Of a DNA stretch of 61,491 nt, positions 33,250-50,660 are shown piece after piece. The stretch is from Eubacteriales bacterium (GTDB taxonomy: Bacteria > Bacillota > Clostridia > Oscillospirales > CAG-272): assembly GCA_045613205.1 (NCBI GenBank), contig JAZLAO010000021.1, forward strand, positions 1 through 61,491, given 5' to 3'. The notes beneath the pieces were generated by a model. That model did not search any database. It was not told where the DNA came from and saw only the letters and a program-made list of their open reading frames with translations. Position 1 is the stretch's first letter, and every line of letters begins with the position of its first letter. Made by a program: the position numbers and the translations under genes.

Positions 33250-33355
33250 AATATAGCAAAACGTTGGAAACGGCGTGACGCAAAGCTATAGGGGCTTCAT
33301 TTTAAGCCAGCCAGTTGCAAGTCCAATGGGGATTTTTGCGACGGGCTGTTTTTTT
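33250..33355 (+). promoter_or_regulatory. c-di-GMP-I (GEMM-I) class riboswitch, A20 variant, with overlapping terminator
   Basis: AGCAAA-ACGTTG-GAAA-CGGCGT-GACGCAAAGCTATAGGG...GCCAGCCAGTTGC; terminator CAGCC...GGCTG-T7 at 33308-33355. Confidence 0.9.
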
Positions 33356-33383
33356 ATATCTTGAGAGAGGAGGGGCTGTGAAA

Positions 33384-34124
33384 ATGGTGGATTTTAACAA
33401 AGCGGACGAAATTTCCTTTAGGCCGATAGTGCTTGATTTTTCGGAGGTTCGTTTTTTTGCTACAGAGAAGCGGATGCTTCGAAGCTTTTTAACCGTTAAC
33501 AGTCTTGACCTCGGTGTTTTGGGATATGAGCAGTACAGATACGTTGCAAGGCGTACGAAGGTTGGAAATCAGCTTGTAAGACGGCATTTCGAAAAGCTAT
33601 TCCGCTCAATTCCCGAATTACTTTCCCGCGACCCCGAAATTGATTGCTTTACGTTGCAGGTGTACGCGCGAATGCTTTTCGACGGCGAGCTTGCTTCGCT
33701 GCTTGTAGAAATGAAATCGGTTTATCCCGAGATTCCGCTCGCGAAGATATGCGTTGAGTTATCTGCGGATATGCTTTATGAGGACCTTGACGTTGCGGCA
33801 GAGAAGATAGACGAGCTTCGTTTGCTCGGTGTCAGAGTGGCTATATTTGAGGTCGGCGACCGTTTCTGTCCCGTTTTCAGACTGTCGGAGATAAAATTCG
33901 ACTACGCGTTTATGGATTCTTACTCCACCGACAGCCTTGCAGGCGAGAGCGCGGAAAGAATAGCGGGAAGCCTTGCGGGCTATCTTCACCACCTCGGCTC
34001 TCTTGTCATTGCTCCCGCCCTTGACTCCAAGGAGAAGATAGAAAGCGCAAAACTCGTCGGTGCCGACGGATATACCGTAGCTCTCGAGTCTTCCTTGGAA
34101 GGAGATTCCGACGATGGACACTAA
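33384..34124 (+). CDS. stand-alone degenerate EAL-domain protein
   Basis: EAL-fold spacing is retained (ICVELS, LGVRVAIFEVG, KFDYAFMD, VIAPALDS, VGADG) but the EAL, DDFG, EGVE and QG residues are lost. Confidence 0.7.
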   Translation: MVDFNKADEISFRPIVLDFSEVRFFATEKRMLRSFLTVNSLDLGVLGYEQYRYVARRTKVGNQLVRRHFEKLFRSIPELLSRDPEIDCFTLQVYARMLFDGELASLLVEMKSVYPEIPLAKICVELSADMLYEDLDVAAEKIDELRLLGVRVAIFEVGDRFCPVFRLSEIKFDYAFMDSYSTDSLAGESAERIAGSLAGYLHHLGSLVIAPALDSKEKIESAKLVGADGYTVALESSLEGDSDDGH

Positions 34125-34836
34125 AAGAATAGTATCTAACGAAAAGCGCCTCAGTTTACTTAAGCGAACGGCGAACGAGGTCAAAAGCTACAGAACGCAA
34201 AAGAAGATTTTGACGGTGCTCCTTATTCTGCTTCTTATCGTAACCGGTATTCTTTACATGGTTGCCGTGCTTTACGAGAAATCCGGCAGCTTTACCGTCA
34301 GCATCAACAAATACGAAATGACAAAGTACGGCTTAACTCTCTCCGAGAGCCGAGATATGTCACGCCCGACCTCGCATCTTAACGCTAAAATAGCCGAGAA
34401 GATGACAAACATAGCAGGCGAAACGATTGACGCAAACGTCGATATGGTAGACGGCGAGCATAACGGCAGGGATTACATAGCCTATACCTTCTACGTGCAG
34501 AACGCGGGAGAGGTTGAGGTTTCATACGATTATGAAATCAAAATGTCGGGAATAACCAACGCTCTTGACGAGGCGCTGCGAGTTCGCCTTTACGTGAACG
34601 GCGGCACTCCCACAACCTATGCGAAAACCAAAAGCGACGGTAGCGGCGCAGAGCCGGGAACGGTTGAATTTGCTTCCGCGACGGTGGTTGCGAGGGAGAG
34701 AATCGAGGCATACAAGCCCGGTGATACCACCAAATTTACGGTAGTAATATGGATTGAGGGCAATGACCCCGACTGCATTGACTGGCTCATCGGCGGAAAG
34801 ATGAAGCTTGAGATGGATATAGGAATCGTTCACTAG
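34114..34836 (+). CDS. membrane-anchored paralogue of the SipW-substrate proteins
   Basis: N-terminal TM helix without an A-x-F cleavage site; C-terminal EALRVRLYV / VVIWIEGND matches the downstream paralogues. Confidence 0.65.
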   Translation: MDTKRIVSNEKRLSLLKRTANEVKSYRTQKKILTVLLILLLIVTGILYMVAVLYEKSGSFTVSINKYEMTKYGLTLSESRDMSRPTSHLNAKIAEKMTNIAGETIDANVDMVDGEHNGRDYIAYTFYVQNAGEVEVSYDYEIKMSGITNALDEALRVRLYVNGGTPTTYAKTKSDGSGAEPGTVEFASATVVARERIEAYKPGDTTKFTVVIWIEGNDPDCIDWLIGGKMKLEMDIGIVH

Positions 34837-34840
34837 CCGT

Positions 34841-35008
34841 AAGGGAATCGAACTAACAAGCCTTCAGGCGATAAATTTTAGCGTCTTTCGTCGTACTAAG
34901 CCTTGTAAAGTCCGCACTTGACTGCGGCTCACTACAACAAAATCCACAAAAAATTTATTCGCCGTAAGGTGCGAAGCAGTTTTAAAACCTTATGAGTTAG
35001 ATTCTCTT
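34841..35008. repeat. ~170-bp MITE/REP-like foldback element
   Basis: 20-bp imperfect terminal inverted repeats plus nested CCTT..GGCG.ATAAATTTT inverted repeats; partial copies at 7659 and 19383. Confidence 0.7.
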
Positions 35009-35099
35009 GCCTAACGGTTATTATTTCAAACCGCGGAGAAATCTTCGGTTGGTCTAAATATAAAATAACAAAAATAAATTCCTAAAAGGAGAAAAAACA

Positions 35100-35885
35100 A
35101 TGAAAATGACACGCAAACTCATCCCCGCGCTTGTAATGCTTCTCGTTTCGGCGATTATGCTGTCAACCGCATCTTACGCTTGGTTTGCAAGCAACTCTAC
35201 GGTTGGAATGTCGGATATGAGGGTAAGGGTTAAGGCAAACACCAGATTCCTTCAGATTTCGGAAAGCGAGGACACAGGCTTCGGAACGGCACTCAACTAT
35301 CAGGCAGAAGCGCTTGCAGAGCGCGAGCTTATAACGGCATCCTTTTCCAAGGAAGACTCCAGCTTGGTTCTCAGCTGGTTCACCGGAACAAGCAACGATT
35401 TCGCTTCCTCCGGAGCACCGGGTACTATTCCCATGGAAGATATGGGTAAACTGGACAGCACGTATACTCTTCATAAGACGGTATACGTAAAAATGTCGAA
35501 CAATTCCACGGCAGGCCTCAGCGATCTTAAATTTGATATGACCGCAGGCAACGCGCCTAGCGTATTGGATGCAAGTGATTCCACCACTCCCACAAATGAG
35601 CTTGCAGAGGCAATCAGAATCCTTGTTGTTGCAAGAGGTGATGCAGATGCCGTTACCGGCGCAGGTCTTTGGGACTACGTAGAGGGCGCGAAATACCTCA
35701 AAGCTGAGGACGGAACTCTTGTCGAAAACGGAAGCATCCTTTCCGCGATTGCATTAAATACTACGTATAAGCTCGACGTATACATATACTACGATGGAAA
35801 CGATGCACAGGCCTTCACTAATAACACGGATGGTCTTGAAGAGCTTCTTATCGGATTCAATCTTACCGCAGCTACGGCAGGCTGA
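35100..35885 (+). CDS. SipW-dependent secreted protein (TasA/CalY-like fibre subunit candidate)
   Basis: Signal peptide ends STASYA|WF; C-terminal EAIRILVV / DVYIYYDGND; strong RBS. Confidence 0.75.
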   Translation: MKMTRKLIPALVMLLVSAIMLSTASYAWFASNSTVGMSDMRVRVKANTRFLQISESEDTGFGTALNYQAEALAERELITASFSKEDSSLVLSWFTGTSNDFASSGAPGTIPMEDMGKLDSTYTLHKTVYVKMSNNSTAGLSDLKFDMTAGNAPSVLDASDSTTPTNELAEAIRILVVARGDADAVTGAGLWDYVEGAKYLKAEDGTLVENGSILSAIALNTTYKLDVYIYYDGNDAQAFTNNTDGLEELLIGFNLTAATAG

Positions 35886-35941
35886 TACACCCTTAAAACA
35901 AATTTTCAATTCAATTATTTATACCGGAAAGGATGATATAC

Positions 35942-37264
35942 ATGAAATCTAAAAGATTTTTGGTTGCGATATGTCTTTTGCTCATATCCGCAACAATGCT
36001 CGGAACGGCATCTTTCGCATGGTTCTCTATGAACACTGAGGTGTCTGTTGACGGAATTGAGGTTGAGGCTTATTCCGACTCTCTCTTCCTTGAAATCAGT
36101 AAGAAAAGCGCAACAGAAGAGTTCGCAACTTCCGTAACTCTTTCAGACTCTGAGGAGCATATTCTCAGACTCGCAAAGCACGGATTTGCAGGCTCGGCTT
36201 ACACTCTTGTAATCGATGACGCGATAACCGGTAATTTCACCGGTGAAACCGATGCTTATTATGAAGTCATCGAAGCAACCGCAGATTCCTATCAGAAGCT
36301 CGTTAAGGCAACTCTTCAGGCAGGAACTCCTCTTGCAGGACTTTACAAGAACCTTGTATTCACAAAGATTACCGTTAATACTTCTGCAAACGGTACCGAC
36401 ACCTACTATGAAATGAACGGTGGTAAGTACACTCCTGTTGTTCCCGCAGACGGCGACGAGGTGAAGGGAAAGTATACTCTTGACACCGTGGCTCCCGCTC
36501 CCGAAGCATCCGGAAATTATGCAGGCGGCACCGATGAATTCTTCTACTTTAATGACGCGGACGACTCATATTCCGACGTTACAAGCACTCTTGAGCTTGG
36601 TACCGACCTTTCGGATTACGTAAAGGTTACCGCTACTCTCGTAAATCTTGCGAGCGCAACCGGTGACGTTTATCTTGCAGGAACAGGTACTGCAACCGAT
36701 GAGTATGCCTTCCTCGGCACATTTACCGGTGAGAACATCACAAATCTTCTTTACTTCGGCAGAGCTTATTCCGACGTGATTGAAAACGGCGATCTTGGCG
36801 ACACCCTCAGCATTATCAAAGATACAAGCCTTGAAAGCTACCGTTACGCTGAGACAATTTGGCTCCGTAACGCGCTTAACACGAACGATTCGAAGAACCT
36901 TAAGGCAGAGTTCAAAATTGGCGGAGCAGATAACAACCTTGCTTCCGCGCTCAGAGTTCTCCTTGTTGTAAGCGATGATACAACAGGAGATATGGTTAAC
37001 GTAGTTTACTATGCAAACGGCGACAATCCCGCAACAAACGGAGTTGTTGAGACGGGATACACTACGTACGGTCTTAACGCGACCGACGATAACATCGTTG
37101 ACGTGCTTCTCGGCAACACTGCAGAAACCCTCAAGGTTGACATCTACGTTTACTTCGACGGTACTGATCCCATTGCTGAAAACGCTGATATTCCCGCAGG
37201 AATACTCGACGGTCAGACTGTTGAAATCAAGTTCACCATCGACAATCACGATTACAACAACTAA
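35942..37264 (+). CDS. SipW-dependent secreted protein with internal repeats
   Basis: GTASFA|WF signal; SALRVLLV / DIYVYFDGTD; acidic, T/G/Y-rich central repeats. Confidence 0.75.
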   Translation: MKSKRFLVAICLLLISATMLGTASFAWFSMNTEVSVDGIEVEAYSDSLFLEISKKSATEEFATSVTLSDSEEHILRLAKHGFAGSAYTLVIDDAITGNFTGETDAYYEVIEATADSYQKLVKATLQAGTPLAGLYKNLVFTKITVNTSANGTDTYYEMNGGKYTPVVPADGDEVKGKYTLDTVAPAPEASGNYAGGTDEFFYFNDADDSYSDVTSTLELGTDLSDYVKVTATLVNLASATGDVYLAGTGTATDEYAFLGTFTGENITNLLYFGRAYSDVIENGDLGDTLSIIKDTSLESYRYAETIWLRNALNTNDSKNLKAEFKIGGADNNLASALRVLLVVSDDTTGDMVNVVYYANGDNPATNGVVETGYTTYGLNATDDNIVDVLLGNTAETLKVDIYVYFDGTDPIAENADIPAGILDGQTVEIKFTIDNHDYNN

Positions 37265-37317
37265 TAAAAAATAAAATCGGGCATATCAGCCCAATCGCAT
37301 TGAAAGGTACTTAAAAA

Positions 37318-38376
37318 ATGGCGAAAGGTAGAGTGGCGTGGGTGTTCTGGGTGCTTGTCATATTGGCAGTTATTACATCCACGGCATCCTACGCTTGGCT
37401 GTCAATGAACACGTCGGCGTTCGCAAAGGGCATAGCGGTAAATCTTGCATCGAACAGCAGACATCTGCAGATTTCCGCAAACGCCGCGGACGGCTACAGG
37501 GAGGAGATTTCATTCGGAAAGGATTCCTATATCTATGAGGACTCGCTTGTGCAGGAAATCTATCTCACTACGTACGGATATCTTCCCGCGGAGGGCGGAC
37601 TTCGTATTTCAGCCGACCCGATAACCGAAGAAAATGCTGATGGACTCGGATTCCAGGGCGGCAAATATGCAGGAGTAGGACGCGTATTCAGAGCCGAGCC
37701 CTCGGGTATATCCTCGGCTTACAGCTACGAGGACGTAACTGCAGATATTTCCGATGGAGAGAGCGTCATAGGGCTGTATACCGTTTCCGACACCGGAGAT
37801 TTTGATTCCAAGTCGGCGGGAGTAGGTATCGCGTACTATTTCAGACATAAGCGCACGGGCGCGACCGACTACGTTTGCGTCGGCAGTGAGTTTTCCGAGG
37901 GGGAAACCCTTTCGGGCAGAAGGTACTGGGGATACGCTATTTCCGAGAACGAGGCTGAGGTTCAGGAAGAGCGAATGATAAGCGTTGTTTCAATGGACCT
38001 GCCCCACAAGGATTACGCGATGAAAAAAACCGCGTACATCAGAACGGCAAAGGGGTCGCTTGACCTGATGAATTTGCGCATTGATTCCATAAAAATTAAG
38101 GGCTTGCGCAACTTTTTGACCGATGCGATAAGGATTATGTTCGTAGCAAGGTCGAGTCTTGGCGGTGAGGAGGTCGTTACCTTTTACAACCCCGAAAAAA
38201 GCGAGGATTTTGACGGCAAGCTGCAGGATGTTTTGAACGGCGACAGAGGCGAAACCGTTACTGTTGAAATCTATATTTTCTTCGACGGAACGCACGAGAA
38301 CGCCAGCACCTATAACGGTGAGCTTTCAAACCATCAGATTGCCGTAGAATTTTCAGTAGATAAAATCATTGATTGA
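37318..38376 (+). CDS. SipW-dependent secreted protein
   Basis: STASYA|WL signal; DAIRIMFV / EIYIFFDGTH. Confidence 0.75.
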   Translation: MAKGRVAWVFWVLVILAVITSTASYAWLSMNTSAFAKGIAVNLASNSRHLQISANAADGYREEISFGKDSYIYEDSLVQEIYLTTYGYLPAEGGLRISADPITEENADGLGFQGGKYAGVGRVFRAEPSGISSAYSYEDVTADISDGESVIGLYTVSDTGDFDSKSAGVGIAYYFRHKRTGATDYVCVGSEFSEGETLSGRRYWGYAISENEAEVQEERMISVVSMDLPHKDYAMKKTAYIRTAKGSLDLMNLRIDSIKIKGLRNFLTDAIRIMFVARSSLGGEEVVTFYNPEKSEDFDGKLQDVLNGDRGETVTVEIYIFFDGTHENASTYNGELSNHQIAVEFSVDKIID

Positions 38377-38407
38377 CGGCGGAAACCGCAGATTTTTATT
38401 TGCAGTA

Positions 38408-38538: not shown

Positions 38539-39363
38539 ATGGAAAACACAAAAAAGCAGAGCTTTATGGAAATAATTAAAGCTCCGAAAACGAAAAAGAT
38601 ACTCTCGATAATCGCAAACACTGTTTTGTGGTTATTCGTAGCATTTTCGCTCTTTATCACTATTCTTGTCTTCTCTGCGCAGGGCAGTGAGGACGGAGTG
38701 CCCGATATATTCGGAAAGAGCCTTATTACCATAACCACCGATTCTATGGAGCCGATATACAAGGCGGGTGATTTGGTGTTTATGGAAAAGATTACCGAGG
38801 AGCAGATTTCCGAGCTCCAGCCGGGTCAGATAATCACCTTCCACGCTCCGATAGATATTGACGGCGACGGAATGATAGGTGACATTAACACGCATATAAT
38901 TTACGAAGCGCATCACGAGCGCAATGCATTTATAACTAAGGGTCAAAACAACCCGCATCCCGATAACGTGGGCGATGATCCTTACGAGGTCCATTATTCC
39001 GACGTAATCGGTGTCTGCACCGAGGATGCGAAGCTTGCGGGCGTCGGAAGCGTTATATCCTTCCTTCGTTCTTCGCTCGGATTTTTCCTTTGCATAGTTT
39101 TACCCCTTATACTTTTCTTCCTTTACGAGCTCTATCGCTTCATTTCTATTATAGTAACGGAAAAGGCTAAGCGCGCCGTTGCTGCGGCTCCCGCGGTAGA
39201 CGAGGAGGAAATAAAAAGACGCGCGATTGAGGAATACCTTGAAAAGCAGAAAAACGAAGAGGAAATCAAGAAGCGCGCAATAGAGGAATATCTTGCCTCG
39301 CAGAAGGCAAGCGAGGAAGCAAAAGCGGAGAAAGATTTCGACACACAGTCTTCCGAAGAATAA
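38539..39363 (+). CDS. sipW: signal peptidase I, SipW/S26B type (copy 1)
   Basis: TM-DSMEP..GD, NTH, FITKG.NN..D; C-terminal TM and a repeated EEEIKxRAIEEYL tail. Confidence 0.85.
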   Translation: MENTKKQSFMEIIKAPKTKKILSIIANTVLWLFVAFSLFITILVFSAQGSEDGVPDIFGKSLITITTDSMEPIYKAGDLVFMEKITEEQISELQPGQIITFHAPIDIDGDGMIGDINTHIIYEAHHERNAFITKGQNNPHPDNVGDDPYEVHYSDVIGVCTEDAKLAGVGSVISFLRSSLGFFLCIVLPLILFFLYELYRFISIIVTEKAKRAVAAAPAVDEEEIKRRAIEEYLEKQKNEEEIKKRAIEEYLASQKASEEAKAEKDFDTQSSEE

Positions 39364-39441
39364 ACAAGAGAATAATCGCTAGAAAGCGAAAACATACAAG
39401 ATGAAAACAAAAATCACAAAGAAGAGAGGAGGAGCATACTG

Positions 39442-40980
39442 ATGGGAGCGTTTTTGGATTGGTTTTTTGCCTTTTTGACAACAATGATAGACGGTGTCTG
39501 GAAGATATTGTCGGGTATTTTCGGTGGAATATTTCAGATATTTAACGTAGTCAGCTACGTTAAGCAGTTTAATGCTTACAAAGACGGATTCGGCGTTCTT
39601 GACTGGATTTTTTCGATAATTTCCTTCATTTTAGTGCTGTCTATATGGGTCGTCATCGTATATTTGCTCGTCCTTCTCATAAGAAAATACATAAGATTTC
39701 GCCGCTCGGCAGTAGGTAACGAGGATCTTCTTGAGGAGGTTGCGGAGCTTCACCGCGACGTTATTAAGCTTAATAACGAAAAGGAGCGCATACTCGCCCT
39801 TAAGATAGGTCAGACCGGTGTTCCCCTCGACGTTCTTAACGGAATCTACGAGGAGGAAGAGGAAAACGTCGCAGAGAGCGTCGGCGAAGAGGCGGAGCTT
39901 CTTCCGAGATTTTCAAAGCTCGATGCCATCGACCAGAAGTATACCTATTACAATCCTCCGGAATACAGAAGAGATTACACTCTTTCCGAGATATGCGATA
40001 CCTTCCGAAACTTCGCCTGTTCGCGTATGGGGCTTTACTATGAAGAGAAGACAATAAGACTTCTTTTCGCGGGATTTGCCTCGACGAAGCTTGTGCTTTT
40101 GCAGGGTATTTCGGGTACGGGTAAAACCTCTCTCCCCTATGCTCTCGGTAAGTTTATGGAGAACGATTCTACCATCGTTTCGGTTCAGCCCTCCTGGCGC
40201 GACCGTACCGAGCTTTTCGGTTACTTCAACGAATTCTCAAAGAAATTTAATGAAACCGACGTTCTTCGCAGAATATACGAGGCGTCCTATACCGACGACG
40301 TTAACGTAATAATCCTCGACGAGCTTAACATTGCCCGTATCGAGTATTACTTTGCGGAAATGCTTTCTATCATGGAAATGCCCGACTTTAACGAGTGGCG
40401 CATAGAGCTTGTTCCGTCCTCTTGGCCGAACGACCCGAAGAATCTCCGTGACGGTAAGCTTCTTATCCCCCAGAACACATGGTACGTCGGAACGGCTAAC
40501 AACGATGACACCACCTTTGCGGTTTCGGATAAGGTTTACGACCGTGCTCTTACTATCAACATAGATAATAAGGGTGTTCCGTTCGATGCGCCCGACACTC
40601 CGCCCGCAAGAATCAGCTATTCATATCTCAACAGCCTTTATCAGAAGGCTATCGCGGAAAACCCCCTTGATACCAAGTATCTCGATATGATAGAGGAGCT
40701 TGATAACTACGTTATTAAGAAATTCCGCGTGGCGTTCGGTAACCGTATTATGAAGCAGCTTAAGATGTTCGTTCCCGTATACGTTGCGTGCGGCGGCACT
40801 ATCCTTGAGGGTATTGACCACGTTCTCGCAACTAAGGTATTCAGAAAGTTCGAGTCACTCAACCTCTCTCTTATCAGAGATGAATTAAAGGGACTCATAA
40901 ACTATCTCGACACACTCTTTGGCAAGGGTACTATGGCATCCTGCATAGAGTTCCTTGAAAGACTTCAGCGTACGTATTAA
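39442..40980 (+). CDS. membrane-anchored McrB-like AAA+ NTPase
   Basis: N-terminal hydrophobic helices and coiled coil; Walker A GISGTGKT, Walker B IILDELN, McrB-type GTANNDD...SDKVYDRA. Confidence 0.8.
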   Translation: MGAFLDWFFAFLTTMIDGVWKILSGIFGGIFQIFNVVSYVKQFNAYKDGFGVLDWIFSIISFILVLSIWVVIVYLLVLLIRKYIRFRRSAVGNEDLLEEVAELHRDVIKLNNEKERILALKIGQTGVPLDVLNGIYEEEEENVAESVGEEAELLPRFSKLDAIDQKYTYYNPPEYRRDYTLSEICDTFRNFACSRMGLYYEEKTIRLLFAGFASTKLVLLQGISGTGKTSLPYALGKFMENDSTIVSVQPSWRDRTELFGYFNEFSKKFNETDVLRRIYEASYTDDVNVIILDELNIARIEYYFAEMLSIMEMPDFNEWRIELVPSSWPNDPKNLRDGKLLIPQNTWYVGTANNDDTTFAVSDKVYDRALTINIDNKGVPFDAPDTPPARISYSYLNSLYQKAIAENPLDTKYLDMIEELDNYVIKKFRVAFGNRIMKQLKMFVPVYVACGGTILEGIDHVLATKVFRKFESLNLSLIRDELKGLINYLDTLFGKGTMASCIEFLERLQRTY

Positions 40981-41014
40981 TTAATACAATTACTAAGGAA
41001 GGGAGTGCTTAAAA

Positions 41015-42967
41015 TTGAATAAGTTTTACGAAGACGTCAAAAGCAAAGCGCTCGCTTCCTACAGGGCGCTCGCAAAGGAATACGCTCCCTTTGAGGACGC
41101 AAATATGCTGCTCGGTGCTGCCGAAAAGTCGGTATCGCTCACGAGAAGCAAAACCGTCAAGACGATAGACACCGAATGGATAACGAAAATCGAGGAGGCA
41201 ATTCCCGAGCTCGATACAGTCATTCGTCGTCCTATGGTGGCAATAGAAGACGTTGACGAGGTTTTGCCTGTGGAGCTTTCGAAGCACATAACCGAAAAAT
41301 CCATAAAGCACCTCGCTCAGCACACGAATTATATTCTCGACGTCAAGGACGACGGAGAGGTCGTTCCGCAGAAGATTCTTAACGTCTTTCACGAGGAGAC
41401 CTATCTTACCTATGAGAATAAGTTCGTAAATACTTTACTCAGTAGACTTTCAGCCTTCGTCGATAAACGCTTGCGCTCCCTTGGTGGCACGAGCGGAGTT
41501 GAGATGGATTATAAGTTCGATTTTTCAACCGAATTTGAGCATCTTATCTCGGACGATGGCGGTCGAAATTCGGCTCGGATAAATCTCCGAATTGAGTTGA
41601 CCTCACCTCTCAGTCAGGAGACCTCCGAGTCGGATAATGAAATCAATGAAAGATATTCCGAGGCGCTGAACAGAATAAAGCGCATAAATATGGCTCTTAT
41701 ATCCTACCGTTCTTCCTCTTTTGCAGAAAAGCTCGGAAAGAATTATATAAGACCGCCCGTTATAAGAACTAACGCAATACTTAAAAACAAGAATCTCAGG
41801 GAGCTTTTGAATCTCTGGGAATATATCGAGGGATACGACAAGGTCGGCTATTCCTTCGTAAGCGATAAATATTACGAGCTTCCGTCGGATGAGTTCGTCG
41901 GAGGTATGTATTCGAGCGCGGCTCTGCAGTATCTTCACCTTTACAGCGGTATTTCCGGAGGGCTTGAGGATAACCGTCTTATTTCGGAAAAGCATCTCTT
42001 TGACGTTATGCCCGAGTTTGACGATGAGCTTTTGAACGACAGTATAGAAGATTATCATGTCTACGACTCGGAGTACAAAAAGACCGTACCCGTGTCAAGA
42101 CTTATGAATAACCGCAAGAAGCTTTCAGAGGACGAGAAAAAAATCAGAGAGGCTCTGCTCCTGGCTCTTCGCGAGGACGAAAGAATAACAGAGGAGCTTT
42201 TGCGCCAAGAGGAAGCAAGGCGGCTCTCCGAGGAAGAGGCAAAGCGTCTTGCTGAGGAAGAAGCAAAGCGTATTGCCGAAGAAAAAGCGAAGCGCCGCGC
42301 AGAGCAAAGAGCAAAGAGGCTCGCAGAAAAGGAAGCAAAGCGACTCGCTGAAGAAGAGGCGAAGCGTCTTGCCGAAGAAGAGGCGAAACGTTTTGCAGAG
42401 GAAGAAGCAAAGCGACTTGCCGAAGAAGAGGCGAAACGTCTTGCGGAAGAGGAAGCGAAGCAGCTCGCAGAGCAGCTTGAGCTTATGCAGCTCGAGGGCG
42501 AGGATAAGGTTGAAGAGCTTATCGAGGAGCAGCTCTCCGAGGACAAGGCTCATCTCGATACCAAGCTTGACGACGTAATAAGCTCGGTTATAAGCGGACA
42601 CAGAGCAATTCCTCTCAGTATGTTTGGCACACCCCTCGTATCGAGAGGACATTCCGGCGCGGTAATCGGTGTTTCCTTTGTCTTCAAGGGCGGAAATGAG
42701 AAGGGTGCGCTCTTCGTTGTCCCGTATACCAGGGAAGAATATATCGGAATGCCGAGAAAGAAGAAAAAGAGAGTTCTCACCTCAATCAAGGCGCTCCTTG
42801 CTTACTCATCAATAGCAAGGCTTCTGGCTGCACTTGAGAGCCTTGACAACAGGGGCGAGAGAATCAACGAGAGAATAGAGAAGCTCCGCGCAAGACTTTC
42901 CGAAAAGCGAAAGAGCCTTCCGACTTCACCCGTATGGGAAGAGGCAGTAAAAAGGGTTGTAAAATGA
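41015..42967 (+). CDS. DUF2357 (McrC N-terminal-like) protein with a charged helical repeat
   Basis: [19 protein letters not shown]2357-type motif, directly after the McrB-like gene; EEEAKRLA x11; no recognisable PD-(D/E)xK motif. Confidence 0.7.
42206..42469 (+). repeat. 11 x 24-bp coding tandem repeat (EEEAKRLA)
   Basis: Counted directly in DNA and protein. Confidence 0.95.
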
Positions 42968-43548
42968 TTTCGAATCGCAAAGCGCGTATATTAAAGGCGG
43001 TTAAAATTTCGGCAAAGGTGCTCTGGTGGTCGTTCACGGTGCTGCTGGTGATACTCCTTGTCAATATCTTGGGCTCAAAGATTCGCGGAAAAGTTCCATC
43101 GGCTTTCGGCTATTCGGTCGTTAAAATCGTCAGCGGAAGCATGGAAGACACGATTCCCCGCGGCTCTTACATCCTTATTAAAAAGACACCGCCCGAAGAC
43201 GTCGGTACAGATGATATAATCTGCTTCTATTCCACCGACCCGGTGATATACGGTGTGCCGAACACCCACCGTGTAAAAGAGGTAAAAAACGAGGGCGGAG
43301 AGTACAAATTCGTCACACGGGGCGACGCCAATGGCGCAGAAGACAAATATCTTGCCGAGGGCGGCAGACTTATCGGCGTCTACGTGAAAACGCTTGACGG
43401 ACTTACCTCGTTTTCAAATTCATTGAGTGGAAACACTCTTATAATTGTAATCATTTGTTTGCAAATATGCATAATTTCAATGGTTGTCTACTCGGTTGTT
43501 ATCTCGAAGGATCGGGCTAAAGGGGACGGGGGAGACGGCGAAGATTGA
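42964..43548 (+). CDS. sipW: signal peptidase I, SipW/S26B type (copy 2)
   Basis: VSGSME, THRV, TRGDAN..ED; ATGA overlap with the DUF2357 stop codon. Confidence 0.9.
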
Positions 43549-43568
43549 TTTTCAGAAGGGAGAGCGTT

Positions 43569-45845
43569 ATGGAAAAGAAAAAAGAAAAACTTAAATTTTC
43601 AGAAGTTGCGCCAAGGGTGGCGCTCTTGATTTTCGCGCTATTCCTTTTGATTTATCTTATCTCGGTAATTTCCGGCTCACAGGATTTTTACAACGAGTCG
43701 GCAGAGAAAAACTCCCTCCTTTATTTCGAGGAGGATATAGAGCGGGGTGAAAATCTCGCAAGAGAGCATTATAATAACCTCTATGAAATCGTCGATAGGC
43801 TCGAATATGCCAAAAACCGCGGTGACGTTGAAGCGGTGATGGAGAGCTATATTGGCTCGGATAAATTCGGGGACCTGCGATACTATTCACAGGGTAGCTC
43901 CTATTCGGCAAACGGCGCAGAGGTGGTGCTTGAAACAAGCGGAGGAGAATATATAACGCCTCTTACCGCATCAAACCGCGAGGGCTGTACTCCCGTATAT
44001 TACGATAAGCACACGGAGCTTGATTGCATTGCCTTTTTCGTTCCGGTGCGCGGCTCTGAATTCGTTGACGGTGTGCTGTCCATACTTCCGGCTAGAAATA
44101 TTATTAAGGTAAGCTCAGTAATCAACGGCAAGGCAAGTGCCGTCGCGGCGGTAACGAAAAGCGGTAAGGTGCTTTCCGATGCCGCAAATAATGATTTTGC
44201 AATTACCCTCGGAAATAATCTATACACCTTTATAGACAGTATAACTCATAACAAGTCGGATTCCGCTCTGGTTTCCGAGGCGATATCGAAGTCCGAAAAG
44301 GGCGCCTTGACAATAAGCACGCAGGGTGCAAATTATACGGTAGCAATAGCTCCGCTTGCGCAATTTGATAACAACGTGATTCTTGTGTCCTTCAGCGAGA
44401 GCGAGGGACTTATAGCGACTGAACTTACGTATATCAGACATATCGTAAACCTTCTTATTATAGCTATTTTGGCACTGCTTGTGGGCTTTGTTTTCGCGAT
44501 GCTGTATAAGAAGAAAACGACAGAGGCAATTACAGCGGCGGCGCTTGTTGACAGCGAGCTTGACTGCCCCAATACAGAGCAGTTTAAATTGCAGGCAAAG
44601 GAGCTTATACAGTCGCGCAGACGAAGATATTCCGTTGCTTCTCTGACAGTCAAGAATTTTGCTTACGTCAAGGAGCAGCTCGGCGAGAGCGGGGCGGTTG
44701 ATTTTCTGCGCGCAATTGCTGATATAATCGCCAATCTTTCCAATCATGAGGAGTGCTACGGCTACTCTGGCGACGGAAGATTCCACGTTCTGATGATAAA
44801 CGCGAATTCTCACTCGGTATCCGACAAGATAAGCCTTATCGAAACGCTTACAAACCGCAACGATTTGCTTTCCGAGCGAGGAATGAAGATAAAGCTCTCC
44901 GCCGGAGTTTATAACGCAATCTCCTCGGGCAGACGCTCGGTGCAGGAAATGATAGACTGCGCAAACCTTGCCGCGGAGCATGCAAACGATAATATAAAAA
45001 CCAATTACACCCTCTATTCAGAGGAGGTAAGAACCGAGATAGCGCGCAACGAGAAGATTGAGGCTATGATGGAGAGCGCTCTTCTAAACAGAGAATTCCG
45101 CCTTTTCCTTCAGCCGAAATACGATCCAAAGCACGACTGTATTCATTCTGCCGAGGCTCTCGTTCGTTGGTTTGATACGCGCAGGGGCGAATATATGTTC
45201 CCCGGCGAGTTCATTCCGCTCTTCGAGTCGAACGGCTTTATAGTAAAGCTCGACCATTTCGTGTATATCGAGGTGCTTGAGTACCTTTTCGGAGCGGCAG
45301 AGCGCGGAGAAAAGGTGGTTCCTATTGCGGTCAACGTATCGAGAGTCACCGCTACAAGCCCCGATTTCATAAACTTCTACGTCGGAAACAAGAAAAAGTA
45401 CGGCATTCCCGACGGATACGTTACCCTCGAACTTACCGAGAGCTTTGCAATGGAGAGCTACGATAAGATATCTTCCATAATACGTGACCTTCATAACGGC
45501 GGACTCCGTTGCTCAATCGACGATTTCGGCTCGGGATATTCCTCCTTCAGCATACTCAAGCAGATAGATTTTGATGAGTTAAAGCTTGACAGCGTATTTA
45601 TGAAGAGAGGTATTGACGTCCGCCGCGACGATAAGCTTTTGCAGACGATAATAGACCTTGCGAAGTTCATGGGTATGAGCGTTGTTCAGGAGGGTGTCGA
45701 AACTAAGGAGCTCTTCGACAAGGTCGTGGCAATGGGCTGCGACGTAATTCAGGGATATTACTACGCGAAGGCTATATCCCTTGAGGAATTCAAGATATTC
45801 ATAAATACCAATACTTCCATAAAATACAAATCAATGGTTAAATAA
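43569..45845 (+). CDS. membrane sensor phosphodiesterase (Cache-like + degenerate GGDEF + EAL)
   Basis: Two TM helices; SGDGRF at the GGDEF position; intact AEALVRW, ELTE, DDFGSGYSS, EGVE, QGYY. Confidence 0.88.
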   Translation: MEKKKEKLKFSEVAPRVALLIFALFLLIYLISVISGSQDFYNESAEKNSLLYFEEDIERGENLAREHYNNLYEIVDRLEYAKNRGDVEAVMESYIGSDKFGDLRYYSQGSSYSANGAEVVLETSGGEYITPLTASNREGCTPVYYDKHTELDCIAFFVPVRGSEFVDGVLSILPARNIIKVSSVINGKASAVAAVTKSGKVLSDAANNDFAITLGNNLYTFIDSITHNKSDSALVSEAISKSEKGALTISTQGANYTVAIAPLAQFDNNVILVSFSESEGLIATELTYIRHIVNLLIIAILALLVGFVFAMLYKKKTTEAITAAALVDSELDCPNTEQFKLQAKELIQSRRRRYSVASLTVKNFAYVKEQLGESGAVDFLRAIADIIANLSNHEECYGYSGDGRFHVLMINANSHSVSDKISLIETLTNRNDLLSERGMKIKLSAGVYNAISSGRRSVQEMIDCANLAAEHANDNIKTNYTLYSEEVRTEIARNEKIEAMMESALLNREFRLFLQPKYDPKHDCIHSAEALVRWFDTRRGEYMFPGEFIPLFESNGFIVKLDHFVYIEVLEYLFGAAERGEKVVPIAVNVSRVTATSPDFINFYVGNKKKYGIPDGYVTLELTESFAMESYDKISSIIRDLHNGGLRCSIDDFGSGYSSFSILKQIDFDELKLDSVFMKRGIDVRRDDKLLQTIIDLAKFMGMSVVQEGVETKELFDKVVAMGCDVIQGYYYAKAISLEEFKIFINTNTSIKYKSMVK

Positions 45846-45866
45846 AGAAAGAGAGGGGGAGGCGGC

Positions 45867-45947
45867 TTGTCAAAGCAATTAAATACGAAAATCGGAATAT
45901 TTTTAGCCTCTCTGACTCTCATTATGAGTATATTCACTCTTGCCTAA
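45867..45947 (+). CDS. 26-aa hydrophobic small ORF or signal-peptide stub
   Basis: GGAGG RBS, TTG start, MSKQLNTKIGIFLASLTLIMSIFTLA*. Confidence 0.35.
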   Translation: MSKQLNTKIGIFLASLTLIMSIFTLA

Positions 45948-46014
45948 GAGAAATTATACCGAAAAAAGAAAACACGAACAGTCTTTTTGATAATTGACTG
46001 CTCGTGTTTTTATT

Positions 46015-47946
46015 TTAAGCCAAAGCCGAATGCTCGGGCTTTTTTTGATTTTCGAGAAAATCCTTCAGCTTGTCAAGCGACATCGGCTTTGCAAAGTAGT
46101 AGCCCTGTATGCCGTCGACTCCGAAGGAGCGCAGCATTTCCACCTGCTCCTCGGTTTCCGCGCCCTCTGCGACAACGTTGAGTCCCATATCGTGAAAGAG
46201 GTCGGTGAGTATGTATACGAGGTTATTGTTTTTCTGCGTGGGCATAACCGTTGAGGTAAGGCTCATATCCAGCTTGACCGTTTTTAAGGGCAACTTAAGA
46301 ACGCAGTTGAAATTACTGTATCCTGTGCCGAAGTCATCGAGATAGAAGGTGTAACCGCTTCTCGCCAGTCTTCTCATATTCTTCTCGGCGAGGCTCAGGT
46401 CGTCTATGATGACTCTCTCGGTAAATTCGAAGCTTATTCTGCTATGCGCAACGTCATAGCGGTCGACAATTTCGTTGAGCTTCTTATCAAATGCGGGGTC
46501 GGTGAGCTGTATCATAGGGAGGTTTATCGACACGCGCTTGTCCTTCAGCTCTTTGCAGCTTGAGAGCGCGCGGCAGGACTCTTCGATAACGAACCAGGTT
46601 ATAGGTATAATGTGACCGGTTTTCTCGGCGAGGGGGATAAATTCGGCAGGGCTTACGTAGGTGCCGTCCTCCTCCTTGAGCCTCAGAAGAACCTCCATAG
46701 ACGAAAAGGCATTCTTTCTAACGCTGAATATAGGCTGGAACCATATTTCGAATCCGTTTTCGGAGCTTACCGTCTGTATACGGTTGATGAGGTACTGTCT
46801 TCTGAGTCTGGTTTTGTCAAGCTCGGGAGCGCAGCGTGTGTACCTAACCTTCATATCCCTTGCTATATCGGAGGCGTGCTCGAGCTGCTCGTATACGGTG
46901 TCTGCGTCCTGTTCGCCGTTCCAGACGTATTCCGAGAGAATATAGTCGAGCTTCATCGGCGCTCCGGTGTAGTTTACGGGGGCTTCAAGGAAGGAGAGAA
47001 GCTTTTCATTCTCTTCCGTGCTTGCCGTTTCCGAAGAATAGGGCAAAACCAAGGCGAAGGTAGCTCCGTGCAAATTAAATGCAGAGGCACCGGAGAAAAG
47101 CTTGTCCAGATTGAAGGCGAAGAGGTAGAGAACCTCATCACCCATTCGGTGACCGTAATTCTGACGGATTACGCTAAGATTTTGAAGCTTGATAAGATAC
47201 GCCTTGAATTTCGTTTCGCTTTTTATTCTTTTGTTCACCTCTTGAAAAAAGCTCCTTGAGCCATTGAGATTCGTGAGCGAGTTTACACCTATGCGGTGGT
47301 TCTGGAAATTTAGGAAGAATATAAGCTCTATAAGAACTATCGAAAGAATGAATACCGAAATTTCACGGTACAAAAGTTTTGCAGAAAGAGAAAGCAATAA
47401 TATGAGCAAGGATTCCGAAAGCGCTATTCTTACGTTGCGTATCAGTCTTTTTCTGTACTTAATACAGTATGCAAGTATCAGGAGAGATTGCGGAATTATG
47501 AAAAGATAGGGGAGGAAGGGAATAACACCCTCTTTATATACGCCCGCCTGTGAAGAGGAGAAAATAAATCCTAAGGGGAGGTTAAGTATGAGCACCGCGC
47601 ATAAAAGGAGGTAAATCGCTGTAAGCGTGAGCTTTGCAAAGAGAAGATGATTTCCGCCGATATTATGCTCGCATATCTTAGCGACGAGATAGATCGCCAG
47701 TACAGATGTGGTTAAGAGCATAAATGCAAAATCCACAGTGACGCACAGCTTTATAAGCCACGGTGAAAGAGAAAAACGCGTGGTTACTTCAATGCGCAGT
47801 ATGTTGACGATTGCTGATGCCAGCGTGGTTATAAGACAAATGGTGTAATAAAGGCTAGCCTTCGTTATGTGATATTTAATGCTAAAGAACACTATCATTG
47901 TGATCGCAAGTATGAGTAATGCGAAGCAATTTCCGATAGTCGTCAT
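46015..47946 (-). CDS. multi-TM phosphodiesterase (degenerate GGDEF + EAL)
   Basis: HGATF at the GGDEF position; EVLLRL, EFTE, DDFGTGYS, AEGAE, QGYYFAKP. Confidence 0.88.
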   Translation of the reverse strand: MTTIGNCFALLILAITMIVFFSIKYHITKASLYYTICLITTLASAIVNILRIEVTTRFSLSPWLIKLCVTVDFAFMLLTTSVLAIYLVAKICEHNIGGNHLLFAKLTLTAIYLLLCAVLILNLPLGFIFSSSQAGVYKEGVIPFLPYLFIIPQSLLILAYCIKYRKRLIRNVRIALSESLLILLLSLSAKLLYREISVFILSIVLIELIFFLNFQNHRIGVNSLTNLNGSRSFFQEVNKRIKSETKFKAYLIKLQNLSVIRQNYGHRMGDEVLYLFAFNLDKLFSGASAFNLHGATFALVLPYSSETASTEENEKLLSFLEAPVNYTGAPMKLDYILSEYVWNGEQDADTVYEQLEHASDIARDMKVRYTRCAPELDKTRLRRQYLINRIQTVSSENGFEIWFQPIFSVRKNAFSSMEVLLRLKEEDGTYVSPAEFIPLAEKTGHIIPITWFVIEESCRALSSCKELKDKRVSINLPMIQLTDPAFDKKLNEIVDRYDVAHSRISFEFTERVIIDDLSLAEKNMRRLARSGYTFYLDDFGTGYSNFNCVLKLPLKTVKLDMSLTSTVMPTQKNNNLVYILTDLFHDMGLNVVAEGAETEEQVEMLRSFGVDGIQGYYFAKPMSLDKLKDFLENQKKPEHSALA

Positions 47947-48175
47947 ATAATTCGCCTTTCAGATTTATATGTAATCATTGAAAAATAAGCCTTATAGTAG
48001 CTAATCCATTAGTCATTATACACAAAAAAAGAGGGCTTGTCAATGCTGATGAAAAAATAAATAATAAATATTATTGAAAAAAAACCGCGCCTGTGCTATA
48101 CTAATTAAAAAAGGAGTTTCCATGGGGGTCTTAACCCCGAGTAAATTTAGGTAAATTCCCTTGGGGTAGGTTGTA

Positions 48176-49765
48176 ATGAAATCAATACACGGTAAATTTT
48201 TAACGATTTTAATATCCGGAATGCTTGTTCTCGCTGTTTCGATAAGTATTATCAGCGTTCTTTACATAAACAGAATTCTTGAAAATGACTCGGACATTAT
48301 AACGGGCTCGGTTGCTAATACCGAGGCTCTCAGAATAAATGAAAAGCTAAGAGAGGTCGAGTTTTCGGCAAGGACTATGGAAAACTATATCACCTCGACC
48401 CTTAACAACGTAGAAATGCTCTCCGACTCGGATTTTCTCGGCGAATATCTTAGGACGGCAAAGGAAACCTTTTACGTAGTTGCTGAAAGCTGTGAGGGCG
48501 TTGTTGCTTACTACTTCCGTCCCGACCCTCTACTCACTGATGCCTATGCTGGCTTCAATATTGCAAGAACGTCCAGCAGTGCAAGCTTCGTAGAGCTTCC
48601 CACGACCAGCCTTGCGGACTGGGAGAATGCACCGTACGAGGACGTATGCTGGTTTTCCGAGCCTAAAACGAACGGCTCTGCGGTATGGCTTGAGCCGTAT
48701 ATAGATAAAGCTATCCAAATCAATATGATTTCCTTTGTGATTCCGGTTTACAAGAATCATACATTTGTCGGTGTAGTCGGAGTCGATTACGACTTTTCAA
48801 ACCTTTGCGGTATGGTTGCAAACGTATCGGTTTATGATAACGGATTTGCTTACCTCGGAAACCCCGATAATGAGGAACAGGTATTCTATTCTCCCGTAGA
48901 CGACCACTTGCTCAGCCGCGCTCATACCGACCACGGATTTGCCGAGGAGCATAAGGTGCTTGAGAACGGTATGACACTTGTCATTCACGCCGATTACAGC
49001 GATATTCAGCGCGACAGCTACAGAATCGTAAGTGTCATTATCCTTATCGTTGTGGTGTTACTTTCGGGCTTTACCTTTATTACATATTTCCTTGTAAGAA
49101 AAGAGATTATCCGCCCTCTCAAAAAGATTACGAAGGCGGCGGAGCTGCTGGCAGACGGCAAGACCGAGCTTGACCTTCAAAGCTGCAAAACAGAGGACGA
49201 AATAGGACTGCTCGCACACGCGTTTGAGAAAACGGCCGAGAAGCTGCGCGGTTACTTATCCTATATCAACACCTTGGCGTATAAGGATGCCCTTACGGGT
49301 ATTAAAAACCGCACGGCGTACAACGAGATGACCTCGGAGATTGACGTTAAGATAAAGATAGGCTACTACGAGCCGTTTGCAATGCTTTCTGCTGATATTA
49401 ATTTCCTTAAGGAAACCAACGATAAATACGGCCACGAGATAGGAAACAAGCTGATAATTAAGGCGGCGAAGATAATCTGCAACGTATTCAAGCACTCACC
49501 CGTTTTCAGAATGGGCGGAGATGAATTTGCCGTGCTGCTTAAGGGCGAGGACTTTGAAAATCTTGACGAGCTTCTTCTTGAGCTTGATGCCCTATCCCGT
49601 GAGAGCTCTCTCATAGTTGACGGCACTGAAATTCCTATTTCGATTGCATGCGCTGCGGAAAAATTCAATCCCTCCTTTGACGTTTGCGTTGAGGACGTAT
49701 ATGACAGAGCTGATAAAAAGATGTACGAGAACAAGGAAAGAATCAAAAAATTAGCTCTCAAATGA
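48176..49765 (+). CDS. Cache-HAMP-GGDEF dinucleotide cyclase
   Basis: TM, WFSEPK...WLEPY dCache, TM, HAMP (EDEIGLLA), DALTG, NDKYGHEIGN, RMGGDEF. Confidence 0.9.
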   Translation: MKSIHGKFLTILISGMLVLAVSISIISVLYINRILENDSDIITGSVANTEALRINEKLREVEFSARTMENYITSTLNNVEMLSDSDFLGEYLRTAKETFYVVAESCEGVVAYYFRPDPLLTDAYAGFNIARTSSSASFVELPTTSLADWENAPYEDVCWFSEPKTNGSAVWLEPYIDKAIQINMISFVIPVYKNHTFVGVVGVDYDFSNLCGMVANVSVYDNGFAYLGNPDNEEQVFYSPVDDHLLSRAHTDHGFAEEHKVLENGMTLVIHADYSDIQRDSYRIVSVIILIVVVLLSGFTFITYFLVRKEIIRPLKKITKAAELLADGKTELDLQSCKTEDEIGLLAHAFEKTAEKLRGYLSYINTLAYKDALTGIKNRTAYNEMTSEIDVKIKIGYYEPFAMLSADINFLKETNDKYGHEIGNKLIIKAAKIICNVFKHSPVFRMGGDEFAVLLKGEDFENLDELLLELDALSRESSLIVDGTEIPISIACAAEKFNPSFDVCVEDVYDRADKKMYENKERIKKLALK

Positions 49766-49777
49766 CACAATTGAATA

Positions 49778-49832
49778 AAGGACCGTTTCGTCTTTGGTTA
49801 TTCACTCTTGTCTAAAGAACGGGCGGTCTTTT
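49778..49832 (+). terminator. intrinsic terminator
   Basis: AAAGGACCGTT...GGCGGTCTTTT. Confidence 0.55.
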
Positions 49833-49995
49833 GATATTGATTTTATAATTACAGATTAAAATATTGATTTATTTTATTCTTTGTGCTATTATTAGATAAC
49901 AGATTTAAATTTAAGGAAGAGATGCCCTGCGGTATCCAAATCACCGCGATTTAAATGCGATTCACGCGGTGATTTTTTCAAAAACGGAGAACAAA

Positions 49996-50150
49996 ATGTA
50001 CAGAATAGTTGACAAAAAGTGCTGAATCCCACTGTGGTACAGCTTAAAATAGAAGCTCCGCTTGTGGCAAGTAAGGCCCGTCCCGGACAATTCATAATAT
50101 TAAGAGTTGATGCGGACGGAGAGCGCACTCCGCTTACTGTTGCAGGCGTT
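49996..50150 (+). pseudogene. nfnA: 5' fragment of nfnA (frameshifted)
   Basis: Diverged copy of 14956-15110 with the same RBS and upstream promoter; 1-bp deletion after GACAAAAAG. Confidence 0.9.
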
Positions 50151-50192
50151 GCTGCATCCGTTGCATTGCGCCGTAAAGGTTTTACCAAATGT

Positions 50193-50278
50193 GACAGCCC
50201 CTAGGATTTTCAGTCGCAGAAAACATTGAAAAGAGCCTTGCACTGACCAAAATTCAGTCAGCACCAAACAAAGAAAAG
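50193..50278 (+). repeat. module-boundary repeat (..CAGCCC..TTT..GTCGCAGAAA.CA..GAAAAG), two degenerate copies
   Basis: Similar to 55679, 56603 and 60165, and weakly to 25719. Confidence 0.5.
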
Positions 50279-50520
50279 AGTTTTACATAGTAGTTTTCTT
50301 CCTATGCATTGTCAAATAGAGCATTATGGTAAATAATATCGCACTTGCGTTGCCGAAGGCAATAAAACGAACGCAATTAAATTTGAAGCATGGATATATC
50401 CCTGCTTTTACGGTTAAATCGGTACAAAGTTAATGTGCTGGCGGAAGCTTTAAATTCAATTTCTTCAGTTGCTTTGATAATATATTATCAAAGGCGAGGG
50501 TTTGTTTCTTATATCAGCTA

Positions 50521-50549
50521 TTGACTTTTTCTCGTGACAGTGATATAAT
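50521..50549 (+). promoter_or_regulatory. sigma-A promoter upstream of riboswitch 2
   Basis: TTGACT-17 bp-TATAAT with extended TG. Confidence 0.7.
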
Positions 50550-50557
50550 TATAACAA

Positions 50558-50660
50558 TAAATAAGCAAACTTGCCGTAAGGCAAGGACGCAAAGCTATAG
50601 GGACCGTCTAATACGGCCAGCCAGTTGCAGAACATGTTTTTGTGTGTTTGCAACTTTTTT
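50558..50660 (+). promoter_or_regulatory. c-di-GMP-I (GEMM-I) class riboswitch, A20 variant, with overlapping terminator
   Basis: AGCAAA-CTTGCC-GTAA-GGCAAG-GACGCAAAGCTATAGGG...GCCAGCCAGTTGC; terminator AGTTGCA...TGCAACT-T5. Confidence 0.92.

Follow-up and report, generated by a model that had tools for sequence, protein, structure and literature searches.

Position 20 in GEMM-I riboswitch aptamers and Asp344 of the GGDEF domain (PleD numbering) are the two textbook switches of specificity between cyclic di-GMP (c-di-GMP) and cyclic GMP-AMP (cGAMP). Both are changed in the DNA analysed here, a stretch of 61,491 nucleotides (the window; contig JAZLAO010000021.1 of assembly GCA_045613205.1) from an uncultured gut-type bacterium of the Oscillospirales, whose c-di-GMP signalling kit is grouped in one gene island. 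Two GEMM-I aptamers of the island carry A at position 20 (A20), and one of its two intact cyclases carries Asn at the Asp344 position (Asn type). A genome with both switches changed invites a call of cGAMP signalling, but two letters alone cannot carry that call. The sequence comparisons described below suggest that A20 and Asn are both tolerated variants of ordinary c-di-GMP signalling and not a switch to cGAMP. The reading that we prefer, and consider fairly probable, is an ordinary c-di-GMP circuit in which ON riboswitches drive SipW-dependent operons for surface or secreted proteins.

In the Vc2 aptamer, G-alpha is read by G20 and G-beta by C92, with A47 intercalating, and this G20 aptamer binds c-di-GMP with picomolar affinity and cGAMP at 10 µM (PMC6140456, accessible part). 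According to the same source, the G20A form of Vc2 binds c-di-GMP at 53 nM and cGAMP at 120 nM in vitro, and a natural A20 aptamer from Clostridium beijerinckii binds c-di-GMP at 30 nM versus 463 nM for cGAMP by means of a protonated adenine. A20 leads to bispecific binding and confers no cGAMP selectivity by itself, as far as the accessible part of PMC6140456 goes. The initial annotation of the window carried the caveat that some A20 riboswitches are promiscuous or still prefer c-di-GMP. The GEMM-Ib aptamers of Geobacter are cGAMP-selective, with about 1600-fold selectivity for Gm0970 (PMC8835794, accessible part). The window aptamers resemble C. beijerinckii Cbe 1-2 in fold, conserved core, A20, Firmicute host and transcription-terminator expression platform; they differ in that the only two GEMM-I aptamers of the source genome are both A20. 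With the Geobacter aptamers Gs1761 and Gm0970 they share the A at the Vc2 G20 equivalent and the retained C92, whereas the Geobacter aptamers live with Ser-type Hypr GGDEF proteins and the source genome has no Ser/Thr GGDEF. Further determinants of the cGAMP selectivity of GEMM-Ib were reportedly described in 2015 by Kellenberger, by Nelson and by Ren.

On the enzyme side, Hypr GGDEF proteins are defined by Ser348 (equivalent to PleD D344), exclusive use of the GGDEF signature and replacement of the cross-dimer Arg (PMC6456294, accessible part). The Asn-type cyclase of the window (cyclase 2) resembles the Hypr enzymes GacA and Bd0367 in its non-Asp residue at the Asp344 position and in its GGDEF, not GGEEF, signature, and its family has loosened the cross-dimer Arg. 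In contrast to the Hypr enzymes, cyclase 2 carries Asn instead of Ser or Thr, has a dCache-HAMP instead of a Rec input and keeps the Arg; in addition, an Asn-type enzyme is paired with a canonical G20 aptamer in one orthologous genome.

The elements of the proposed circuit in the window are as follows.

31817-33046, plus strand: cyclase 1, a membrane-anchored GGDEF protein (Pfam GGDEF, 1.7e-29) with an intact GGDEF and the canonical Asp (GHMEGD), directly upstream of riboswitch 1
33218-33246, plus strand: promoter-like site before aptamer 1, TTGATT-17-TATAAT, 10/12 consensus matches (a consensus match only)
33245-33322, plus strand: GEMM-I aptamer 1 (RF01051, 56.9 bits), with A at Vc2 position 20 (33255)
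33308-33355, plus strand: terminator hairpin (33308-33348) and U7 tract of riboswitch 1; CAGCCAGUUGCAAGU forms the 5' arm and is also aptamer 1's 3' strand
43545-45845, plus strand: protein with a degenerate GGDEF (1.5e-08, motif SGDGRF) and an EAL domain (Pfam EAL, 5.6e-50), a probable c-di-GMP phosphodiesterase
46015-47946, minus strand: second protein with a degenerate GGDEF (6.5e-10) and an EAL domain (Pfam EAL, 1.1e-58), membrane-anchored
48176-49765, plus strand: cyclase 2, a dCache-HAMP-GGDEF protein (PF00990, 4.3e-20) with Asn at the PleD Asp344 position and an intact GGDEF at 49514-49528
50521-50549, plus strand: promoter-like site before aptamer 2, TTGACT-17-TATAAT with TG, 11/12 consensus matches
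50554-50632, plus strand: GEMM-I aptamer 2 (RF01051, 61.5 bits), with A at Vc2 position 20 (50564)
50623-50661, plus strand: terminator hairpin (50623-50655) and U6 tract of riboswitch 2; GUUGCAGAAC forms the 5' arm and overlaps aptamer 2 at its 3' end

Searching the window against Rfam with cmscan gave two matches only, both to the c-di-GMP-I model RF01051 and both above its gathering score of 35. Model position 11 is A in both aptamers; this base is unpaired, adjoins the paired G-C of GCAAA on the 5' side and corresponds to G20 by the description of Vc2 in the accessible part of PMC6140456. A pattern search of the genome placed AGCAAA at 33255 and 50564, so that the alignments and the pattern search both bore out the two A residues reported in the initial annotation. 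The canonical G is thus absent from position 20 of both aptamers, a known natural variant that leaves their RF01051 membership unaffected. Both aptamers follow the consensus at the equivalents of A47 and C92 (GACGC-A and AG-C). The conserved core is common to the two aptamers and their P1a stems differ with compensating changes, which indicates that both have been maintained and are not recent duplicates of each other.

Behind each intact cyclase gene, the order of elements is the same: a promoter-like site, the aptamer, a strong hairpin with a U tract and then an operon. Minimum-free-energy (MFE) folds were computed with ViennaRNA for 33253-33362 and 33300-33362 (riboswitch 1) and for 50556-50680 (riboswitch 2), and the 3' part of the riboswitch 1 leader (33300-33362) folded at -21.7 kcal/mol. 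For both aptamers, the predicted expression platform is coupled to the aptamer, and the terminator with its U tract uses the aptamer 3' strand. Because the 5' arm of the terminator is the 3' strand of the aptamer, ligand binding would block the terminator, and we infer from these folds that both riboswitches are probably ON switches. One detail of riboswitch 1 does not fit together: its predicted -10 box ends at 33246, so that transcription would begin only some 2 nt ahead of A20, with no 5' strand left to form the P1 helix (33241-33255). Either the promoter call is wrong or P1 is dispensable for this aptamer; according to the accessible part of PMC6140456, P1 influences ligand preference.

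The source assembly (2.05 Mb, 155 contigs, 95.9% complete; G000 in the genome comparisons) was searched with domain profiles and with the Rfam model. All four GGDEF domains of the genome lie inside the window, two in the intact cyclases and two, degenerate, fused to strong EAL domains. There are four EAL matches, of which three lie in the window and the fourth is a fragment on the edge of a contig, and both GEMM-I aptamers of the genome are in the window. About 24 kb holds two cyclases, two probable phosphodiesterases and two riboswitches, in a genome of the stated completeness in which no PilZ, no HD_5/HD-GYP and no SMODS (DncV/CD-NTase) match was found. One DAC domain, that of a c-di-AMP synthase, is located outside the window. 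No established cGAMP synthase, whether a Ser/Thr Hypr GGDEF or a CD-NTase, was found in the genome, and its four GGDEF domains read Asp, Asn and two degenerate forms. The locus is a compact and complete c-di-GMP circuit, suited to reconstitution.

In the circuit that we propose, the two GGDEF cyclases would make c-di-GMP, cyclase 1 as a canonical enzyme and cyclase 2 as a member of an Asn-variant family with a periplasmic dCache sensor, and the two proteins with degenerate GGDEF and EAL domains would remove it. The two GEMM-I riboswitches, the only recognisable receptors found in the genome, would respond to it. With ligand bound, the aptamer would hold its own 3' strand, the competing terminator would not form and the operon would be read through. 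The in vivo ligand of the A20 aptamers would most likely be c-di-GMP, since A20 is a frequent natural variant that binds c-di-GMP at nanomolar concentrations via a protonated adenine. The Asn-type cyclase would most likely also make c-di-GMP, possibly with altered affinity or some promiscuity.

The distribution of A20 was counted directly in related genomes. A family sample (100 genomes and the source genome) contained 31 aptamers, 28 with G20 and three with A20, the latter being the two window aptamers and one (L031) in genome G005. An order-wide pattern search of 401 genomes gave clear A20 aptamers in at least 28 genomes among the matches listed; this search produced many false matches, and true aptamers were chosen by eye (a 31-nt match, a stem and a GNRA-like loop). 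About 4 of 31 known aptamers escape the pattern, and in 80 of the genomes true aptamers were picked by overlap with Infernal matches. When the Rfam model was run on these 80 genomes, GEMM-I was found in 26 of them, with 55 aptamers in total. Nine of the 55 coincided with A20 pattern matches, and the count rises to at most 11 if two further matches are real; A20 thus makes up 16-20% of the aptamers and occurs in 5-7 of the 26 carrier genomes. The A20 share in the five sure carriers was 1/1 aptamers in G135, 3/8 in G145, 1/3 in G160, 1/1 in G172 and 3/6 in G185, and none of these five showed an Asn-type GGDEF by pattern. Likewise, no GH..G[S/T] motif followed by GGDEF was found in five A20-bearing genomes, of which G434, G410, G185 and G145 have 3 to 8 A20 aptamers each and G135 has one. 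The matches to Asp/GGEEF cyclases, 3-4 each in G410, G185 and G145, are the positive control for this null result in those three genomes, and G434 and G135 are without such a control. Among Clostridia, A20 is common and apparently tolerated.

A20 aptamers tend to occur several to a genome, with four in G410 and three each in G185, G145 and G271. In G434 (contigs C22, C28 and C29), there are at least eight A20 aptamers, four of them in tandem within 1 kb (C28, 60874-61897).

The Asn-type GGDEF was found by pattern in at least 17 of the 401 genomes of the order. Since the pattern accepts only an exact GH..GN separated by 22-23 residues from GGDEF, it undercounts. Asn-type GGDEF proteins also occur elsewhere, in records labelled Lachnospiraceae, Fibrobacter, Treponema, Selenomonadaceae and others. 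A20 and the Asn-type GGDEF are both minority states, and neither is rare.

Covariation of A20 with the Asn variant was examined in 42 different genomes of the Asn type (family sample, 5; genome_contigs set, 22; order sample, a further 15). GEMM-I was present in 13 of the 42, four with only A20 and nine with only G20, as follows.

Asn-type genomes with only A20: G000 (2 aptamers), G005 (1), G103 (2), G105 (1)
Asn-type genomes with only G20: G031, G109, G117 (2), G119 (3), G120, G153, G366 (3), G425, G435

A20 was not enriched in the Asn-type genomes (4/13 carrier genomes versus 5-7/26 in the background); most of the assemblies compared are incomplete, and the genomes are relatives of each other. 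In two genomes, G031 and G105, the only intact GGDEF domains are of the Asn type. G031 (97% complete) combines a single Asn-type enzyme (L184 2857-4443, minus strand) with one degenerate GGDEF-EAL protein, and its single aptamer is G20. The aptamer heads a cluster on the minus strand (L184, G031:C65, 4720-16891) that ends with the Asn cyclase. By eye, this cluster encodes VTC-, DUF4956-, CotH-, glycosyl-hydrolase- and family-2 glycosyltransferase-like proteins, followed by the degenerate GGDEF-EAL protein, a deacetylase-like protein and the Asn cyclase. Synteny with the window is limited to the cyclase and the GGDEF-EAL gene. Given how strongly a G20 aptamer discriminates against cGAMP, G031 is most simply read as a genome whose Asn-type enzyme supplies c-di-GMP. 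Comparison of homologous islands rests on few cases: only one GEMM-I (L072) was found within 10 kb of 80 genome_contigs relatives, and only one weak GEMM-I match (30.5 bits) was found within 4 kb of 80 metagenome_contigs relatives, all of which have at most 41% identity.

The translations bear out the two cyclase motifs given in the initial annotation. The ORF of cyclase 1 (31817-33046) reads INDIYGHMEGD...RYGGDEFAAV, with the canonical GHMEGD, and the ORF of cyclase 2 (48176-49765) reads ...TNDKYGHEIGNKLI...RMGGDEFAVL and contains TNDKYGHEIGN. The DNA pattern for GH..GN, 22 amino acids and GGDEF matched at 49430-49528, and the AAC codon at 49445-49447 encodes Asn424, as the initial annotation had stated for its GHEIGN motif. 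The guanine-reading position of cyclase 2 is thus neither the usual Asp nor the Ser or Thr of Hypr enzymes. The enzyme also has DxN..LK where DxD..FK is usual. The metal-binding Asp (D407), the Asn335 equivalent (N415) and GGDEF (G447-F451) are intact and invariant among the aligned members. The cross-dimer Arg (PleD R300; R537 in 5LLX) is kept in cyclase 2 (IKNRT) and not replaced in the Hypr manner; this residue was taken as the first one after the N of LTGxxN, and alignments with PDB entries put N-R under the N-R of canonical cyclases.

Of the initial annotation, the base and residue assignments are correct; A20 aptamers do bind both dinucleotides in vitro, and the Asn is a conserved and selected feature of a large cyclase family. 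Altered or relaxed specificity of the Asn enzyme is conceivable. The two further claims, cGAMP signalling and a link between A20 and Asn, did not find support. The proposed covariation was absent from the counts above, and the Asn-only genome G031 has a G20 aptamer. As for cGAMP, A20 accounts for 16-20% of the order's aptamers and is found where Asn and Ser/Thr GGDEFs are absent, the clostridial A20 aptamer prefers c-di-GMP, and the only phosphodiesterases found in the source genome are of the EAL type.

Several observations weigh against the view that A20 and Asn are simply tolerated in an ordinary c-di-GMP circuit. In the family sample, the A20 aptamers (3/31) occur only in Asn-type genomes. 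Genome G105 encodes two Asn-type enzymes (among them the ortholog at L185 7613-9181) along with one degenerate domain, and its sole aptamer is A20 and lies directly behind the cyclase gene, as in the window. The sister loci of G005 and G006 pair A20 with Asn and G20 with Asp; the cases pairing A20 with Asn (G005/G006 and the window family) are few and not independent. Asn itself is strongly conserved: it was found in 118 of the 120 best homologs of cyclase 2 (37-98% identity), all of which are dCache-(HAMP)-GGDEF proteins. Of the two others, P0111 has Asp, and P0008 could not be parsed and showed GHEVGN when inspected. On a FastTree phylogeny of 166 full-length relatives (128 Asn and 38 Asp), six changes between Asn and Asp were counted, versus a mean of 34.4 and a minimum of 29 over 500 label shuffles. 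Reversions were few (P0111/L068/L069; L062), as were independent gains (L077; L078/L080/L081; L084). Since the Asn and Asp codons are one transition apart and yet few changes occurred, each state is held by selection in its own clade. The Asn is not noise, and selection on it is hard to square with an equivalence of Asn and Asp. In predicted diguanylate cyclases the cross-dimer Arg shows 94% conservation, and Hypr enzymes that make cGAMP have another residue in its place (PMC6456294, accessible part); in the Asn family it is kept in only 59 of 119 members, and the others have Ser (26), His (8), Ala (7), Val (6), Thr (5) or another residue (8). Arg or Lys was present at this position in 77 of 88 Asp-type relatives versus 20 of 28 Asn-type loci. 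Finally, no Asn-type GGDEF with a measured product was found in the searchable literature. The Asn clade is noteworthy in that it is large and conserved, has a GGDEF-only background and has loosened a second substrate contact.

One alternative is an Asn cyclase of relaxed purine specificity that makes 3',3'-cGAMP, or a mixture of dinucleotides, in the manner of Hypr enzymes, with bispecific A20 aptamers allowing both cyclases to feed the same operons. The amide of Asn could in principle form hydrogen bonds with the Watson-Crick edge of either guanine or adenine; purifying selection on Asn and the loss of the cross-dimer Arg in half of the family point in the same direction. So do the pairing of A20 with Asn in G105, where all intact cyclases are of the Asn type, the two of two A20 aptamers in G103, and the contrast between the G005 and G006 loci. 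Since no SMODS protein was found in the genome, cyclase 2 would be the sole candidate for a cGAMP synthase. All 119 parsed homologs of cyclase 2 have GGDEF and never GGEEF, like the Hypr enzymes described in the accessible part of PMC6456294, but this background is typical of the wider DxNxLK clade, including 69 Asp/GGDEF proteins, and is not tied to Asn. Cyclase 2, moreover, keeps the cross-dimer Arg, and Hypr enzymes with this Arg are reported to make more c-di-GMP (PMC6456294, accessible part). The established Hypr residue is Ser or Thr and not Asn, A20 is not enriched in Asn-type genomes, the sole Asn-type cyclase of G031 is paired with a G20 aptamer, and the source genome has EAL phosphodiesterases with no HD-GYP protein found. 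Taken together, we regard relaxed specificity as unlikely for the window. A broader form of the same idea, which we rate as doubtful to a similar degree, is that a selection-kept Asn clade of gut and rumen anaerobes may use both ATP and GTP; this would be a Ser/Thr-independent route to cGAMP or mixed dinucleotides and could supply the missing synthases for some bispecific A20 riboswitches of Firmicutes.

The GGDEF-only signature was also considered as a sign of Hypr-like activity in its own right and was rejected, as the Asp-type relatives in the DxNxLK clade share it.

It appears very improbable that the Asn-type GGDEF has little or no cyclase activity and serves mainly as a sensor or scaffold, with cyclase 1 alone supplying c-di-GMP. 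Loss of the carboxylate that reads guanine N1/N2 should lower the affinity for GTP, and no RxxD I-site was seen by eye in cyclase 2. Against this reading, 34 aligned family members (37-78% identity) show no variation at the metal-binding Asp, the Asn335 equivalent, GGDEF or the general-base Glu, and the only intact GGDEF domains found in G031 and G105 are of the Asn type and stand beside working-looking aptamers and EAL proteins.

For the ordinary c-di-GMP circuit, the likely targets are the operons behind the two riboswitches. The genes concerned are as follows.

33315-34124, plus strand: EAL-domain protein that opens operon 1 behind riboswitch 1 (Pfam EAL, 1.5e-13, covering only profile positions 36-227)
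34114-38376, plus strand: four secreted-protein genes of operon 1, read from translations
38539-39363, plus strand: SipW/archaeal-type signal peptidase I, copy 1 (TIGR02228, 4.6e-17, 62.3 bits, cut-off 51.85)
42934-43548, plus strand: SipW/archaeal-type signal peptidase I, copy 2 (TIGR02228, 2e-23, 83 bits)
50698-55601, plus strand: operon 2, three secreted-protein genes (275 aa, ~1100 aa and 240 aa) with SLAWF/ALAWF-type signal peptides

Operon 1 thus comprises the EAL protein, several secreted proteins and two SipW/archaeal-type signal peptidases. Copy 1 also matched the SipW model at 2.3e-16, below the cut-off of that model. Three genes of operon 1 (35100-35885, 35933-37264 and 37318-38376) encode N-terminal signal peptides that end in ASYAWF/ASFAWF-type motifs, and the SipW-type peptidases probably process the secreted proteins. 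The locus resembles the SipW-TasA fibre systems of Bacillus and Clostridium in that SipW/archaeal-type peptidase genes stand beside genes for several small secreted proteins with a common signal-peptide motif. In contrast to those systems, it has c-di-GMP riboswitch control and two peptidase copies, and its secreted proteins match no TasA/camelysin model. The secreted proteins of both operons gave no significant match to any Pfam or NCBIfam family. A look-up with the Atlas protein language model offered a lead only for the operon 1 proteins, to PF12389 (camelysin/TasA), which scored high and accounted for 26% of the cluster members.

The motifs of the EAL protein at 33315-34124 look degenerate by eye, with EQY for EAL and FEVGDRF for DDFGTG. 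This protein is probably catalytically degenerate and, as far as its motifs can tell, may be a c-di-GMP-binding receptor and not a phosphodiesterase. Its true start is probably later than the listed TTG.

The layout of a cyclase gene followed by a GEMM-I aptamer and an operon occurs in several genomes, with Asp-type and Asn-type cyclases alike. In addition to the two window loci (31817-33322 and 48176-50632), it was seen at L170/L151 and L178/L181/L154 in G103, at L185 (7613-9400) in G105, at L063/L031 in G005 and at L042/L032 in G006. It seems that each operon under riboswitch control moves together with a cyclase of its own. In G103 (L178/L181; G103:C5:6729-7147), an A20 aptamer lies just downstream of an Asp-type GGDEF gene that is broken across two reading frames, which reflects either a frameshift or an assembly error. 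Within the genus of the source genome, G027 (99% complete) has no GEMM-I match and no homolog of cyclase 2, and both G027 and G496 are without the Asn-type pattern. The c-di-GMP island may be accessory or acquired.

Between the two signal peptidase copies, at 39442-42967, lie two further genes, for an AAA protein and a 650-aa DUF2357 protein. The AAA protein shows weak similarity to McrB/AAA_5 (NF008457, 5.3e-05; PF07728, 0.0019), and the DUF2357 protein (1.6e-06) contains a long repeat. Together they look like an McrBC-like pair that was inserted in, or co-opted by, the fibre operon.

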